A program made the position numbers and the translations under genes. Source: Eubacteriales bacterium (GTDB lineage Bacteria; Bacillota; Clostridia; Christensenellales; UMGS416). Taken from it: DNA of 64,000 nt. Positions 52,176-57,974 of this stretch are shown here, in pieces; the stretch's first letter is position 1, and each line of letters starts with the position of its first letter. Under the pieces are notes generated by a model. The model made no database searches and was not told the origin of the DNA. It saw nothing but the letters and a program-made list of their open reading frames with translations. The stretch covers positions 5,465 to 69,464 of the forward strand of contig JBFLKU010000006.1 of NCBI GenBank assembly GCA_040883315.1. The letters run 5' to 3'.

Positions 52176-52231
52176 ATCTTAATAGCGAAAAGCGTAAAAA
52201 AATACATTTATATAAGAGAAAGGTGAATGAT

Positions 52232-52558
52232 ATGATAGCATCAATAGCACTAGACGCAACTGCAGCACCAGGAACAAATCCAATAGTTAGCATTTTGTTG
52301 TTTGGCGGTTTCTTTGCAGTAATGTGGTTTATTATGATAAGACCTCAAAAGAAGCAGCAAAAACTAAGACAGCAAATGCTGGACAACCTACAAGTGGGTG
52401 ACAGAGTGACCACAATCGGCCGTTTCTACGGCACAGTAACAAAAATTAAGGACGATATTATCACAGTGAAAATCGGCCCTAATGACACAGAGCTTATGAT
52501 TGAAAAGCGCGGCATTGACTCAGTTAATGAGGAAGTGGACGCTGAGAGCATGCTTTAA
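52232..52558 (+). CDS. yajC: Preprotein translocase subunit YajC
   Basis: One TM then IRPQKK, L..GD.V.TIG..G; follows tgt; start may be 52223 (GTG) or 52232 (ATG). Confidence 0.92.
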   Translation: MIASIALDATAAPGTNPIVSILLFGGFFAVMWFIMIRPQKKQQKLRQQMLDNLQVGDRVTTIGRFYGTVTKIKDDIITVKIGPNDTELMIEKRGIDSVNEEVDAESML

Positions 52559-52578: not shown

Positions 52579-52608
52579 AAAGGACTATCCGAAAGGGTGG
52601 TCTTTTTT
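52579..52608 (+). terminator. Intrinsic terminator after yajC
   Basis: AGGACTATCC-GAAA-GGGTGGTCTT stem with a GNRA loop and T-tract. Confidence 0.85.
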
Positions 52609-52689
52609 CGATATATGATATTTAATCATGATTGGCAAAAATGTTTTTAAGTTAACTTTTGAATATAAAACTTTAATTGGAGAATGCAT

Positions 52690-53913
52690 ATGACCTTAAT
52701 TGTAGCAAGACTAATTGATGATAAAATAATTATTGTGGGTGATTCTAAAAGAATATATTCACATAAATGTATAGAGCATTATGATCAAAATCAGCTAACA
52801 AAGGGTATTATAAAATCAATAATTTTATCTGATTATATTTGTTTGAACTTCGCAGGTAATATAAAATATTTGGAACGTGCAATAGCAGAAATAAACGCAA
52901 ATCAAATTATTGAAGATATAGTAAAAATATTAGAGAAAGTTAGTTATAATGCTATTAGCAAAAATGAAGAAGCACAATTTATTTTAGCTTACTACGATGG
53001 GGAATGTAAGCTATTAGAAATAAAGCACAATGAAACAAACAAAATTAGTGCTGGCTGGGTAGGTGACTATGAAGGGTTTAGAAAATTCCAAGAGGCATCA
53101 CTTTTAAATATAAATGTACAATCAGATGGTACGGATTGTTATATAAAACTGCGCAGACTTCCAGATGATTTTACAGATAAACAGTGCGATTTATATAGCA
53201 AGATGATCGAAAGCATGTCAACAGTAATAGATGAAGATTGTGTGGATAAGGTGGGTGGATTTGTTATACCAGTAATTTTTTCCGAAGGGAAATTCAAGTA
53301 TACAAGTTATTTAAATATTTTTAGAGGACCGATAAAGGAAAATGAAATGGGTGAGAATATTAAATTTACCACTAACGAAGACGGGGGGTTCAGTGCCAAT
53401 TTAGCTTCATCAATTGATAATAATATAGCAGTGTATATGTTCCAAGGTAAATTGGGTATAGTTTTTTGTAGAGAAATTAATGGGCTAATGTTACCTACTA
53501 TTTATAATAACATTGATGAACTAGATTTTTTCTATATAGCATTTACAAAGTATAATATTGAACCAACCTGTTTGTTGTTTTCGAGTGTTAGCAGCTATAT
53601 AAAGAAGGCAGAATCAAATTTTAATATTAATGAAGATAAAACATCTTATTTTCTTGAAAAAGCAATAAAAATGGCTGAAAAAGAATTTGAGAAAAAACAT
53701 GGACAAATTGTAAGTGAAGATATGCTACAAGAATATTGCTCAAAACTCAACAAAATTGATAGAGAAAACTACTCGAAGTGTTATTATAATTTAGGAGTTT
53801 CTCAAAGTAAATTAGGGAAAAAAGAGGATGCTATTAATTCCATTAATAAATCTTTAAAAATAAATCCAGATTTCGAGCAAGCAAAACGAATGTTGTTTAT
53901 TCTATCTAATTAG
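52690..53913 (+). CDS. Orphan AT-rich protein: proteasome-beta/HslV-like Ntn-hydrolase domain + C-terminal TPR
   Basis: Start ATG 52690 is 7 nt after GGAG and gives M-T; Thr1, Asp17, Lys-x13-Gly(AG), VGD, VGG; C-terminal YYNLGV.....G..E.A.....KSL.INP.F..A. Confidence 0.65.
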   Translation: MTLIVARLIDDKIIIVGDSKRIYSHKCIEHYDQNQLTKGIIKSIILSDYICLNFAGNIKYLERAIAEINANQIIEDIVKILEKVSYNAISKNEEAQFILAYYDGECKLLEIKHNETNKISAGWVGDYEGFRKFQEASLLNINVQSDGTDCYIKLRRLPDDFTDKQCDLYSKMIESMSTVIDEDCVDKVGGFVIPVIFSEGKFKYTSYLNIFRGPIKENEMGENIKFTTNEDGGFSANLASSIDNNIAVYMFQGKLGIVFCREINGLMLPTIYNNIDELDFFYIAFTKYNIEPTCLLFSSVSSYIKKAESNFNINEDKTSYFLEKAIKMAEKEFEKKHGQIVSEDMLQEYCSKLNKIDRENYSKCYYNLGVSQSKLGKKEDAINSINKSLKINPDFEQAKRMLFILSN

Positions 53914-53959
53914 ATTATTATACAATTTAGTATCATAAAATAAGATAGTTAAAAACCAG

Positions 53960-53987
53960 TTGAAATAATCCCAATCTACTCTATAAT
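53960..53987 (+). promoter_or_regulatory. Sigma-A promoter of gltX
   Basis: TTGAAA-16 nt-TATAAT. Confidence 0.55.
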
Positions 53988-54016
53988 ATATATGAGGTTT
54001 ACAAACGAAAGGATTT

Positions 54017-55663
54017 ATGATGGATTATAACAAATTAGCGGACTTATTATTTCCGAATATAAAAGAAACACCCGAAGATTATGAAAAAAAATACCCAGCC
54101 AGAGATTTGCCTGCTGGCGCAATGGTGACACGACTGGCACCCAGCCCAACAGGGTTTATTCACCTAGGCAATCTATTTGGTGCAGTGGTGGACGAGAGGC
54201 TGGCAACCCAAAGCGGCGGTGTATTTATCCTGCGCATAGAGGACACGGACGCCAAAAGAGAGGTGGAGGGTGCTGTGGAGCTGACCATCGACACCATGAA
54301 GCACTTTAACATAGAATTTGACGAAGGGGCAACAGCCGATGGCGAAACCGGCGACTATGGCCCATACAGGCAAAGACAGAGGAAAGACATCTATCAGGCA
54401 TTTGCAAAGTATCTGGTGCAAAGAGGATGTGCATACCCATGCTTCTGCACAGAAAGCGAGCTGGAGCAAATACGCGAAAAGCAGAAGGAAGCCAAGCTGG
54501 ATTTTGGCTACTATGGACAGTGGGCAAAACATAGAAATGCATCACTGGAAGATATAGAAAAAGAGCTGGCAGCAGGCACGGAATATGTTCTTCGCTTCAA
54601 AAGCGAGGGCGTGGCAGGCAAATATGTGAAGGTAGCAGACGGCATAAGGGGCGAGATAGAAGTGCCGGAGAATATTCAGGATATCGTTTTGCTGAAATCC
54701 GACGGAATACCCACCTATCACTTTGCTCATGCAGTGGACGACCACCTGATGAGGGTGACCCACGTGGTGCGTGCGGAGGAGTGGATGTCCACTCTGCCGA
54801 TACACGTGCAGCTATTTGACACACTGGGCTTTGAAAGGCCTATATACTGCCACACAGCACAGCTGATGAAGGTGGACAACGGCAACAAGAGAAAGCTATC
54901 CAAGCGCAAGGACCCGGAGCTGGGGCTTGATTATTACAGGAGCATAGGCTACACAGTGGATGCCGTGTGGGAATATCTGCTGACTATTCTTAATTCCAAC
55001 TATGAGGCATGGAGAGACAAGAACCCGGATGCAGACAGACGCGATTTTAAATTCACGCTGGATAAGATGACAAAATCCGGTACGCTTTTTGACATAATGA
55101 AGCTGAACAACATCAGCAAGGATGCCATAGCCAAAATGACAGCAGAGCAGGTATACGATGGGCTTTTGGGCTGGGCAAAAGAATACGACGAAGAATTTTG
55201 CGATATCATATCCAATGCACAGGCAAAGACAACAGCTATACTGAACATGGGCAGAAATGCCAAAAAGCCGCGTAAGGATATCGTCACATGGAGCCAGTGC
55301 AAGGAGTTTATCAAATATTTCTACAATGAATACTTTGAGGTGGAGGATGAATATCCGGATATCCCTGCGGAGAATATCAAAAAGATACTGGTGGATTATG
55401 TGGCATCCTATAGCCATACTGACGAGAAGAACGACTGGTTTGAAAAGGTGAAGGTGATAACAGAGAGCCTGGGCTACGCCACCAACACCAAGGAATACAA
55501 GCTAGACCCGGATAAATTCGGCGGCAGCATAATTGAGGTGACCACCATCATCAGGATAGCCCTGACAGGCAAGGCAAACGCACCGGACATATGGGAAATA
55601 CAGCAGATACTGGGCGAAGAAGACACCATAGGGCGCATGAACAACGCAATAAAAAAACTATAA
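54017..55663 (+). CDS. gltX: Glutamate--tRNA ligase (long clostridial type)
   Basis: RLAPSPTGFIHLG, LRIEDTD, PTYHFAHAVDDHLM, KLSKR. Confidence 0.95.
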   Translation: MMDYNKLADLLFPNIKETPEDYEKKYPARDLPAGAMVTRLAPSPTGFIHLGNLFGAVVDERLATQSGGVFILRIEDTDAKREVEGAVELTIDTMKHFNIEFDEGATADGETGDYGPYRQRQRKDIYQAFAKYLVQRGCAYPCFCTESELEQIREKQKEAKLDFGYYGQWAKHRNASLEDIEKELAAGTEYVLRFKSEGVAGKYVKVADGIRGEIEVPENIQDIVLLKSDGIPTYHFAHAVDDHLMRVTHVVRAEEWMSTLPIHVQLFDTLGFERPIYCHTAQLMKVDNGNKRKLSKRKDPELGLDYYRSIGYTVDAVWEYLLTILNSNYEAWRDKNPDADRRDFKFTLDKMTKSGTLFDIMKLNNISKDAIAKMTAEQVYDGLLGWAKEYDEEFCDIISNAQAKTTAILNMGRNAKKPRKDIVTWSQCKEFIKYFYNEYFEVEDEYPDIPAENIKKILVDYVASYSHTDEKNDWFEKVKVITESLGYATNTKEYKLDPDKFGGSIIEVTTIIRIALTGKANAPDIWEIQQILGEEDTIGRMNNAIKKL

Positions 55664-55806: not shown

Positions 55807-56724
55807 ATGGAGATACAATTAAACGGCATAGTAAAAAGATTTGGCGAAAAGACAGCCGTAGACAATGTATCATTCACTGCTAAGGGAGGGCAGGCTTTCG
55901 GACTTCTGGGCAGGAATGGAGCAGGCAAGACCACAACCATGCGAATGATAATGGACGTTTTTAAATCCGATGAGGGCAGCATTACAATAGACAATGCAAA
56001 AATAGACAGAAAAAAAGTGCGCTTTGGATATCTTCCGGAGGAGCGTGGGCTTTATCCGAAGAAAAAGATAAAAGATCAGCTTTTGTATTTGGCTGAGCTA
56101 AATGACATGAACAGGAAAGATGCAATTGTCTCTATAGAGCACTGGCTGGAAAAGCTGGACATGAAGCAGCATATAGACAAAAAGCTGGATACGCTATCTA
56201 AAGGAAATCAGCAGAAAATACAGCTGGCATCAGTTTTGATGATAAATCCTGATATTATTATTTTAGATGAGCCTTTTTCAGGGCTAGATCCTGTTAATGC
56301 ATCTGTGCTGCAGGACATTGTGGACGAGCAGATAAAGCTGGGCAAGATAGTCATTTTCTCCAGCCATCAGATGAATAATATTGAGGAAGTGTGCGACGAT
56401 ATCATCATTTTAGATGAAGGCAAGGCTGCACTTGCTGGCAATTTGCAGGAGATAAAAAACTCTTACCCAAAAACACATATAAATATAACGGGTAAAGACA
56501 TAGGCAAGATAAAAGTGGATATCGAGAAAAAGCTGACGTCATTTGTGCGAGATATTGTAATGGATGAATATGAGCTGGATATACACCTGAAAAGCGAAAA
56601 GGGCAGAGACGAAATACTGGATATTATATCTGCCAACAGTTACGAGATAGATAGCTTCAGCGTGGTGAAGCCCACATTAAATGAGATATTTATAAAAGCT
56701 ACAAAGAGGGGAGAAGACAAATGA
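55807..56724 (+). CDS. ABC transporter ATP-binding protein (YhaQ/NatA-like)
   Basis: GRNGAGKTT, GYLPEERGLYP, LSKGNQQK, LDEPFSGLDPVN, SSH. Confidence 0.92.
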   Translation: MEIQLNGIVKRFGEKTAVDNVSFTAKGGQAFGLLGRNGAGKTTTMRMIMDVFKSDEGSITIDNAKIDRKKVRFGYLPEERGLYPKKKIKDQLLYLAELNDMNRKDAIVSIEHWLEKLDMKQHIDKKLDTLSKGNQQKIQLASVLMINPDIIILDEPFSGLDPVNASVLQDIVDEQIKLGKIVIFSSHQMNNIEEVCDDIIILDEGKAALAGNLQEIKNSYPKTHINITGKDIGKIKVDIEKKLTSFVRDIVMDEYELDIHLKSEKGRDEILDIISANSYEIDSFSVVKPTLNEIFIKATKRGEDK

Positions 56725-57974
56725 AAAAATTCTTTACAGTATTCAAGTTTGAGTTTTCAAACCTTGTAAAAAGCAAGCCGTTTATAATACTATCTATACT
56801 GGTTGTTGTGGGAATGGGCATCGCAATGTCATACCCAAGAATAAGCCAGATGATAGATGATGCAAAAGGCGATGATGTGCCTGTAGATGCAGCGATGACT
56901 ATGGCCTTGATAAATGAATCAGTTTATGATGACGACATAATAACAGGCATGTTTGCGTCTGCTATGCCGGACTATGAAATCCACAAAGAAACAGGAAGCA
57001 TAGACGATGCAAAGCAAATGATAAAGGATGAGCTATATGGATATGTACTGTATCTGGAAGGCGAAAATGACTATACACTGGTCACAGAGTCTATAGGACT
57101 AGAGAGCAGCATAACATACAGAGTGGACGGCATATTGCTGGACAACTACAAAGCCTATCTTTTGGCACAGCAGGGGCTAGAGCCCGATACAGCAAGCCAA
57201 ATACTGAAGGCATCAATGAATGCAGATGTATTTGAAACAGGAAAAAATCAATCAGAATCGTTTTTATACACCTATATACTGCTGTTTTTCCTATATATGA
57301 TAATAATAATATACGGACAGATGGTGGCAACCAGCGTGGCAACAGAAAAAAGCAGCCGTGCTATGGAAGTGCTTGTAACCACTATAGACCCTGTGCGCAT
57401 GATGTTCGGCAAGGTGCTAGGCATTGGTGCAGCAGCTCTTTGCCAGGTAGCTGTGGTGGTGGCATCCGGTGCATTCTTTTTTAATCTAAATCAGGATTAT
57501 TTAGGAGGCAAGGAGATAATCGGAACACTATTTAATATACCAACAGAAACGCTTGTTATTTCATTAATACTGATAGTGCTAGGATTTTTTGTATATGCAT
57601 TCCTGTATGCAGCAGTTGGCTCTCTGGTAAGCAGAATAGAGGATGTCAGCTCTGGAGTATTGCCTATAACATTCATATCTATCGGTGCATTTATGGCAGT
57701 TATGTTTTCTATGACATCAGGTAATCTAGACAGTGTGCTGATGAAGATATTCACGTATTTCCCGCTCACCTCGCCGTATGCTCTGCTGGTAAGGATGTCT
57801 ATGACGGATGTTGGACTGCTGGAGGGCGTGGGAGCTATAGCACTGCTATTGGTCACCTGCATAATAATCGGATATATAGCAGCCATGATATACAAGCTGG
57901 GCGTGCTGATGTATGGCAAGCCTCCAAAACTAAAAGAAGTATTTAAACTTCTGAAAACAAACAAAAAAGCATAG
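56721..57974 (+). CDS. ABC-2 permease (YhaP/NatB-like)
   Basis: N-terminal TM, large external domain, SVATEKSSRAMEVL, GKVLG, G.LMYGK.P. Confidence 0.9.
   Translation: MKKFFTVFKFEFSNLVKSKPFIILSILVVVGMGIAMSYPRISQMIDDAKGDDVPVDAAMTMALINESVYDDDIITGMFASAMPDYEIHKETGSIDDAKQMIKDELYGYVLYLEGENDYTLVTESIGLESSITYRVDGILLDNYKAYLLAQQGLEPDTASQILKASMNADVFETGKNQSESFLYTYILLFFLYMIIIIYGQMVATSVATEKSSRAMEVLVTTIDPVRMMFGKVLGIGAAALCQVAVVVASGAFFFNLNQDYLGGKEIIGTLFNIPTETLVISLILIVLGFFVYAFLYAAVGSLVSRIEDVSSGVLPITFISIGAFMAVMFSMTSGNLDSVLMKIFTYFPLTSPYALLVRMSMTDVGLLEGVGAIALLLVTCIIIGYIAAMIYKLGVLMYGKPPKLKEVFKLLKTNKKA

Follow-up and report, generated by a model that had tools for sequence, protein, structure and literature searches.

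A stretch of 64,000 nucleotides from a Eubacteriales bacterium (GenBank assembly GCA_040883315.1, contig JBFLKU010000006.1, positions 5,465 to 69,464 of the forward strand; this whole stretch is referred to as the window) carries, between yajC and gltX, a gene at 52690–53913 whose product of 407 amino acids appears in Pfam, NCBIfam and PADLOC only as a tetratricopeptide repeat (TPR) protein. The observations brought together here point to a stand-alone, mobile, proteasome-like Ser/Thr hydrolase of the N-terminal nucleophile (Ntn) type, which was gained horizontally and may have a role in conflict; a probability of about 0.6 is attached to this reading as a whole. Proteasome-type proteases are usually pictured as chambered machines fed by ATPases, and the gene described here belongs to a family of hundreds of sequence clusters in which the catalytic residues are kept. 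If these proteins are active, they would present the proteasome fold as a solitary, targeted protease, and a protein of this size that needs no partners would be a tractable entry to the workings of that fold outside a ring.

Predicted fold and catalytic residues

The open reading frame (ORF) listed for this part of the window runs from 52684 to 53913 on the forward strand. Read from its second ATG, at 52690, it yields a 407-residue protein with the N-terminus MTLIVARLIDD... (MTLIVARLIDDKIIIVGDSKR). The spacing between a GGAG motif and this ATG is 7 nt, as against only 1 nt to the ATG at 52684. In addition, 128 of the 149 listed homologues share the matching N-terminus, an [M/V/L]-[S/T]-[L/F/I] opening; therefore, 52690 is the correct start, as an initial annotation of the sequence had proposed. 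In some of the other 21 homologues, the same motif follows a brief extension that is probably a miscall; others are N-terminal fragments. The features of the gene are listed below, with residue numbers that count Met as 1.

52679..52682, + strand: Shine–Dalgarno sequence GGAG ahead of ATG 52690 (sequence reading; homologues open M-[S/T]-L)
52690..53913, + strand: coding sequence, 407 residues; proteasome-like Ntn domain, beta4-alpha subdomain and TPR-like tail (ORF, homologue search, model)
52693..53331, + strand: Ntn (proteasome beta-like) domain, residues 2 to about 214 (VIA-align model range 2 to 210–238; HMMER and hhalign register against HslV)
52693–52695, + strand: putative nucleophile Thr2 (alignment columns, VIA-align)
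52741–52743, + strand: Asp18 (alignment columns)
52813–52815, + strand: Lys42 (alignment columns)
within 52693..53331, + strand: further Ntn-domain motifs, namely Gly56 of FAG, G125-D126 of GWVGD, and V188-G189-G190 (alignment columns)
53332..53574, + strand: family-specific subdomain, residues 215–295, a four-strand beta meander plus helix with conserved G232 and G256 (model, alignment columns)
53575..53910, + strand: helical TPR-like tail, residues 296–407 (Pfam, PDB sequence match, model)
53776–53874, + strand: Pfam TPR_1 match, residues 363–395, at 31.6 bits against a cut-off of 27.8

The AlphaFold2 model, calculated with the family alignment A2 (see below), has a mean predicted local distance difference test score (pLDDT) of 94.1 and a predicted template modelling score (pTM) of 0.91. 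All 50 top rows of a Foldseek search against the PDB are proteasome entries (E 1.9e-8 to 5e-7), and the best 50 entries in a VIA-align comparison over the Foldseek top 1000 are all 20S proteasomes, with Z scores of 18.2–19.6, root-mean-square deviations of about 3–4 Å, and 175–190 residues aligned out of about 200. The best-aligned chains carry mature beta-type numbering that starts at Thr1. Residue 2 of the model, where the aligned range begins, superposes on the first residue of the chain in both mature beta5 and Thermoplasma beta; Thr2 of the window protein therefore occupies the Thr1 position. The proteasome-type Ntn fold, which the initial annotation had read from motifs, is thus recovered by both methods (Foldseek at E of about 2e-8), and the model predicts, with high confidence, a proteasome-like fold with an intact triad.

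Helices 58–67 and 74–90 of the model lie at the positions of H1 and H2. There are two additions to the core: a loop insert of lower pLDDT (residues 23–38) ahead of the catalytic Lys, and a strand inserted between helices H3 and H4 (residues 140–162). The beta4-alpha subdomain, folded alone, reaches a pLDDT of 88.8; it has no convincing fold match (best Foldseek E 0.54; best Z 4.5 in a wide VIA search), which is not proof of a new fold. The clear C-terminal TPR announced by the initial annotation is the Pfam TPR_1 match listed above. Prediction of a homodimer from two full-length copies scored 0.00 and counts neither way.

The extent of the family was established by an exhaustive phmmer search with residues 1–345 against 1.84 billion representatives. 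This gave 402 clusters at E ≤ 0.001, of which 178 reach ≤ 1e-10 and 32 reach ≤ 1e-30; most of the alignments begin at residue 1. The term ‘orphan’, used in the initial annotation, is therefore right only in the sense of partnerless, because the family is large: no partner gene recurs across 57 loci, but the protein is not a lone one. Other searches found little. A word-indexed homologue search with the window protein recovered nothing beyond the query and unrelated TPR proteins, a profile of the N-terminal domain gave three hits in it, NCBIfam gave only weak, sub-threshold matches of TPR type, and a search of PDB sequences matched the TPR only.

Alignment A2 consists of the window protein and 137 of the 149 listed hits, 12 without an N-terminus having been left out before counting (n = 138). 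Position 2 is Ser in 95 sequences and Thr in 41 (136 of 138 together), with a gap in two; position 18 is Asp in 135 and Glu in three, and position 42 is Lys in 137. Gly is found in 126 sequences at position 56 (of FAG), in all 138 at position 125, in 126 at position 190, in 132 at position 232 and in 127 at position 256, and Val in 126 at position 188. The motifs that had been picked out from the single sequence (counting Thr as 1: Asp17, Lys41, Gly55 of FAG 14 residues after the Lys, GWVGD, and DKVGG) are thus among the most conserved columns of the family. Overall, members are just 19–35% identical to the window protein; that the catalytic columns are kept despite this indicates strong constraint on them.

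Family members differ in length. Among the 149 listed hits, 103 have at least 340 residues, 35 have 260–339, and 11 have fewer than 260. The shorter members stop after the beta4-alpha subdomain; what the family conserves is therefore the Ntn domain together with beta4-alpha, whereas the TPR tail varies. In a Pfam scan of the window protein together with 99 chosen hits of at least 338 residues (alignment A3), TPR families match 66 of these 100 longer members, and no other domain type recurs.

At the level of sequence, the links to known proteasome-like proteins are weak but consistent. When a 36-sequence profile of the N-terminal domain (A4) was compared with PDB sequences by HMMER, the top match was HslV (4hnz; E 0.2), whose Lys and FAG motifs align with those of the family. 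In an hhalign comparison of A4 with 16 clostridial HslV sequences (A8, taken from the genomes searched with PF00227), E was 2.4e-4, and Thr2 and Asp18 were paired with Thr1 and Asp17, respectively. PF00227 matches two of the 100 longer members at E ≤ 0.01 (best 1.2e-4). Structural neighbours in the ESM Atlas are clusters of ‘hypothetical proteins’, commonest in Pseudomonadota, Bacteroidota and Actinomycetota; in one of these clusters, 13% of members carry PF00227, and clusters named as proteasome come next, with lower TM scores. In a library of viral structures, HslV-like or proteasome-like proteins of phages match best (E 2e-6 to 4e-4).

Insertion into the host genome and distribution of the family

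The gene entered this genome horizontally, as an AT-rich insert that carries no other gene. Its guanine plus cytosine (GC) content is 0.29, as against 0.45 in the 3-kb flanks, and the sliding GC value over 52600–53999 is 0.25–0.35 compared with 0.48–0.55 in tgt and gltX, in line with the AT-richness noticed in the initial annotation. By Pfam, the upstream neighbours are RuvB, QueA, Tgt and YajC, and the downstream neighbours are a class-Ic Glu/Gln-tRNA synthetase and an ABC transporter. The immediate surroundings are as follows.

52223..52558, + strand: yajC, upstream host gene (Pfam YajC, 2.4e-26)
52627..53949, no strand assigned: AT-rich inserted segment with one gene, borders approximate (alignment to the yajC–gltX spacer of genome G001; GC 0.25–0.35)
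53960..53987, + strand: gltX promoter-like site TTGAAA-16-TATAAT, 3′ of the insert and kept in G001 (sequence comparison)
54017..55663, + strand: gene for class-Ic Glu/Gln-tRNA synthetase (gltX), downstream host gene (Pfam tRNA-synt_1c, 2.2e-67; 84% identical to the G001 orthologue)

In a genome of the same genus (G001, locus L003), the gap between yajC and gltX measures 141 bp and contains no insert. When the two spacers are aligned, homology ends just after the yajC terminator region and restarts at the gltX promoter-like site. This break implies that about 1.3 kb (approximately 52627–53949) is extra in the window, and the segment holds only this gene, in agreement with its description as solitary. 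Searches with residues 1–345 found no homologue in 40 relatives, the single match (E 0.208) being at chance level, and the N-domain profile found the family in none of 400 other genomes sampled evenly from the host phylum. Absence from the corresponding gap, from the relatives and from the rest of the phylum sample speaks for the horizontal acquisition suggested earlier and against vertical inheritance. Neither in the fold, nor in the conservation of the catalytic residues, nor in inheritance at this locus was the reading of the initial annotation contradicted.

No integrase, transposase, direct repeat or convincing repeat of another kind was found at the borders of the insert, either among the ORFs of the window or in a repeat check. 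A 13-nt imperfect inverted repeat near the borders (52614–52626 and 53925–53937; 85%) was set aside as probably due to chance in AT-rich DNA. In a second genome of the same genus (G002, 74% complete; L004:43-1332), the C-terminal part of a pheT-like gene, not yajC, lies upstream of gltX; therefore, local synteny is not fixed inside the genus. The ABC transporter pair 3′ of gltX (window 55807–57974) has a GC content of 0.36–0.44, somewhat below that of the ruvB–tgt–gltX genes; judged from ORF sizes, the order from gltX to the ABC transporter is apparently the same in G001.

The host also has a canonical HslV, encoded elsewhere (genome G000, contig C12:109248-109769, locus L095; PF00227 at 5.9e-30). 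It is the sole PF00227 match in the host genome, and of 31 genomes (G000 among them) searched with this Pfam model, 29 have a canonical HslV. Since the host keeps this protein, the window gene is an addition and not a replacement. The contrast with HslV drawn in the initial annotation is strengthened by this, and by the lack of any partner gene that recurs beside the family.

To follow the family across genomes, a degenerate DNA pattern for the N-terminal motif was used, which catches 45 of 150 family sequences. Genome contigs gave 17 loci, of which 11 are true members, while the remaining six proved to be a chance 44-codon ORF in Rhodococcus that does not belong to the family; one of two loci in IMG/VR and 41 of 57 in metagenomes are true. 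The 11 genomic loci come mostly from Chitinophagales and other Bacteroidota, with additional cases in metagenome-assembled genomes (MAGs) of a Verrucomicrobiia, a Gammaproteobacteria (L019) and a Candidatus Egaibacter member. L019, from a genome flagged as unpublished, serves here only in the locus counts. Single-protein look-ups added loci from a Christensenellaceae MAG (L009), an Acidaminobacter MAG (L010) and a Nitrospira MAG (L011, with a shorter relative). Even in Bacteroidota the family is uncommon, being found in one of 400 other genomes.

An all-against-all BLAST comparison of the neighbours at 57 family loci (56 plus that of the window) showed no recurring neighbour family except among near-identical contigs. 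Compared with its flanks, the gene is lower in GC by at least 0.03 at 32 of the 56 loci and by at least 0.10 at 12, and higher at one. In sum, the family is rare, widely scattered, fast-diverging and mobile.

Individual loci illustrate the range of contexts. In the Nitrospira MAG, a defence reverse transcriptase (DRT) of type RT_UG14 (L011:6348-7886; PADLOC, 5.9e-198) lies directly upstream of the family member, in a region of about 4.5 kb with lower GC. At L017 (93-3496), a ThiF(E1)–JAB fusion of 606 residues, a gene for an unknown protein of 230 residues and PDC-M48B (6.9e-136) precede the family gene, which follows 70 bp downstream on the same strand; these upstream genes resemble a candidate ubiquitin-like-conjugation defence operon. 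The Acidaminobacter locus is an island of AT-rich DNA, which also encodes a Mutator transposase and two further proteins, one with a NERD domain and one of the TRADD-N-associated 2TM type. A phage fragment from IMG/VR (L030:1-7169) carries genes for portal, capsid plus S78 prohead protease, TerL, TerS and HNH proteins; its family member, of 298 residues and without TPR, lies on the opposite strand between TerS and the HNH endonuclease, a moron-like position. Among 60 neighbours scanned, there are two phage-type integrases and one rve_3 integrase, together with single PADLOC matches to AbiLi, AriA, PDC-M12A, JAB and E1-E2, the last two from L017.

Two side observations arose from the same material. 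At five of the 57 loci (L015:2219-3405, L018:5291-6162, L048, L050 and L069), the match to the family extends over two separate ORFs; such copies look frameshifted, decaying or affected by assembly errors. The N-terminal pattern also picked up a separate protein of 237 residues with an MSLVIA...AADTKLT start and an FVG motif (L040:8351-9061, L042:12586-, L047:321-; fragments in L072 and L075), which reaches only about 18 bits with the family profile and probably represents another uncharacterised proteasome-like family.

Proposed mechanism and competing explanations

The mechanism envisaged is as follows. Methionine aminopeptidase, which works efficiently before Ser or Thr, would remove Met1 and so leave Thr2 at the N-terminus as the nucleophile. 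This removal is expected from the small Ser or Thr at position 2, and since there is no propeptide, no autoprocessing step would be required. Asp18 and Lys42 would complete a proteasome-type triad, with Gly56 of FAG providing the oxyanion hole. The free amino group and the hydroxyl of residue 2 would then attack a peptide bond, as in the proteasome, HslV and connectase. The enzyme would act on particular proteins, in which it would most likely cleave, or possibly transfer, peptide bonds; these targets may be selected or gated by the conserved beta4-alpha subdomain and the variable TPR tail, both packed firmly on the core, in place of a chamber fed by an AAA+ unfoldase. The most likely role would be in conflict between mobile elements and their hosts, either as defence or as counter-defence.

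Met removal, catalytic activity, selection of targets by TPR and subdomain, and the conflict role are all steps that we infer, and they are not equally strong. That the protein is an active peptidase or transpeptidase is judged probable. The initial annotation had likewise suggested an anti-phage or conflict function, and the contexts described above are suggestive of such a putative role: a pattern that is sporadic, AT-rich, fast-diverging and sometimes phage- or island-borne fits a conflict gene. A role in defence or counter-defence is plausible, with the odds leaning somewhat against it, and the numbers of loci are too small for a claim. A more specific form is put at slightly lower odds: a one-gene conflict system, for defence or phage-borne counter-defence, in which TPR and beta4-alpha sense or capture a phage or host protein, and a proteasome-like effector with no need of unfoldase or chamber cleaves a specific target. 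If true, this would be the first proteasome-type protease to serve as a bacterial immune effector.

Several findings weigh against the overall reading of a mobile, active hydrolase with a conflict role. In sequence, the resemblance to known proteasome-like proteins is only marginal. The window protein has no PF00227 match even at E ≤ 10, and it is therefore filed in the superfamily and not in that Pfam family. The hhalign comparison with HslV reaches a probability of just 44% and shifts the Lys by one column. The secondary residues (Ser129, Asp166 and Ser169) seem only partly canonical as well: the column that matches Ser129, after G125, holds Ser in 66 and Asp in 58 of the 138 A2 sequences, VGG stands in place of the SGG motif, and an equivalent of Asp166 is not evident in the A2 columns. 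What the family does, and on which substrates, is a matter that we infer. As regards conflict, the association with defence is numerically weak. Neither the window copy nor that at L009 has a mobile or defence gene beside it; both lie between housekeeping genes, the gene at L009 being another solitary AT-rich one (GC 0.30 as against 0.48). Pfam matches among the 60 scanned neighbours are mostly housekeeping, and only one of 20 immediately adjacent genes, from 11 loci, has a PADLOC match at E ≤ 1e-5. No model of PADLOC-DB v2 matches the window protein at E ≤ 10, and tblastn of residues 1–300, a single divergent query and hence a weak probe, found nothing in collections of plasmid and phage records.

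The mostly housekeeping neighbourhoods, including those of the window copy and L009, would also suit a sequence-specific protein-processing or protein-ligating enzyme, similar to connectase, that acts on one cellular or element-encoded target and has an accessory role in metabolism or maturation, not in conflict. TPR modules typically bind a defined peptide. The lack of a propeptide, the extra domains on an Ntn core and the absence of an unfoldase partner are traits shared with connectase, as the main text of Fuchs, Alva & Lupas 2021 (PMC8665760) describes it. This explanation is unlikely. A maturation enzyme is expected to travel or co-occur with its target, and the 57 loci offer neither a conserved neighbour nor a candidate substrate gene; the rarity of the family (about one in 400 genomes per phylum sampled) and its usual AT-richness relative to the flanks fit a mobile accessory gene better. 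Moreover, the model has H1 and H2, which are absent in connectase according to the same text (PMC8665760).

The presence of H1 to H4, the helices that make ring contacts in proteasomes, and the close match in fold to 20S beta subunits, which assemble into rings, bring up a different possibility, namely a self-compartmentalising ring protease like HslV or BPH, with stacked rings that degrade unfolded proteins in bulk, perhaps with a borrowed host unfoldase, and with TPR tails on the outside. Such tails could be tolerated, as C-termini generally point away from the rings (PMC8665760, main text). Even so, a ring protease is rather improbable here: no AAA+ gene recurs beside the family, the host already has its canonical HslV, and the pTM of 0.91 for the monomer reflects a subdomain and tail that are firmly packed on the Ntn core. 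The H3–H4 insert, which contains a strand (140–162), points the same way, inserts at this place being described as able to block double-ring assembly (PMC8665760, main text).

A catalytically dead or decaying passenger that keeps the Ntn fold merely as a scaffold or TPR adaptor is very improbable, for although five of 57 loci have split copies and the secondary catalytic residues are not all canonical, the window copy retains nucleophile, Asp, Lys and Gly, and the conservation of these columns in 126–137 of 138 sequences, at about 25–35% overall identity, is hard to explain without selection on catalysis.

Comparison with known systems

With the 20S beta subunits (PF00227, MEROPS T1; 1pma, yeast and human beta5), the window model has the alpha-beta-beta-alpha Ntn sandwich in common, and the equivalents of Asp17, Lys33 and Gly47 are conserved in the family as D18, K42 and G56. 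In the window protein, the Lys stands at position 41 (Thr = 1) because of a loop insert of about eight residues relative to Lys33 of the 20S subunits. The differences are equally clear. The family has neither propeptide nor alpha subunit, and Ser is commoner than Thr as the putative nucleophile (95 against 41 of 138). The window protein also has the H3–H4 insert, and it is longer by about 190 residues, which make up the beta4-alpha subdomain and the TPR tail.

The best relative at the level of sequence is HslV (ClpQ). Common to both are the M-T start, the GD(T/G) motif, the FAG motif, occurrence in bacteria and the lack of a long propeptide. HslV is a single-domain protein of about 175 residues that works with HslU, whereas the window protein has 407 residues with two extra modules, and no unfoldase gene recurs near the family, either at the 57 loci or among the window neighbours.

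Many further relatives of the proteasome are known. The main text of Fuchs, Alva & Lupas 2021 (PMC8665760) describes another 22 families of proteasome-like proteins, in which the triad is the same, propeptides are lacking and gene context proved uninformative. Several of these families (RPC, DAH, DGH/GPH, FC4) have C-terminal domains, some of unknown fold, PMI-2 to PMI-6 have inserts at H3/H4, and PPH and AAH are phage-borne (PMC8665760). RPC and PPH are reported there to have no H2; connectase has neither H1 nor H2, and carries a two-helix insert between S3 and S4. The window model has both helices (58–67 and 74–90) and differs in this from connectase as well as from RPC and PPH as described in that text. 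Like the window family, Anbu, BPH, connectase and the families of that paper are divergent prokaryotic or phage proteasome-like proteins without an unfoldase partner (PMC8665760, main text). On the basis of distribution and inserts as described there, the window family may overlap one of these families, with PMI-4, DAH and GPH as candidates; the term TPR has zero occurrences in the main text.

A search of the literature found no report of an Ntn plus beta4-alpha plus TPR architecture or of mobile single-gene behaviour, nor of ‘proteasome-like’ together with ‘anti-phage’, the defence papers found being without proteasome terms. The proteasome-like superfamily is already known to be diverse, and this combination of Ntn, beta4-alpha and TPR is one that Pfam, NCBIfam and PADLOC leave unannotated.

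The same logic of layout is found in TPR-CHAT (Csx29, ‘Craspase’), in which a peptidase is fused to a TPR that binds a partner or trigger. Such effectors depend on partner genes, and none recurs beside the window family at the 57 loci. The protease folds are unrelated as well: that of TPR-CHAT is caspase-like, with Cys and His, in contrast to the Ser/Thr Ntn fold predicted for the window family.

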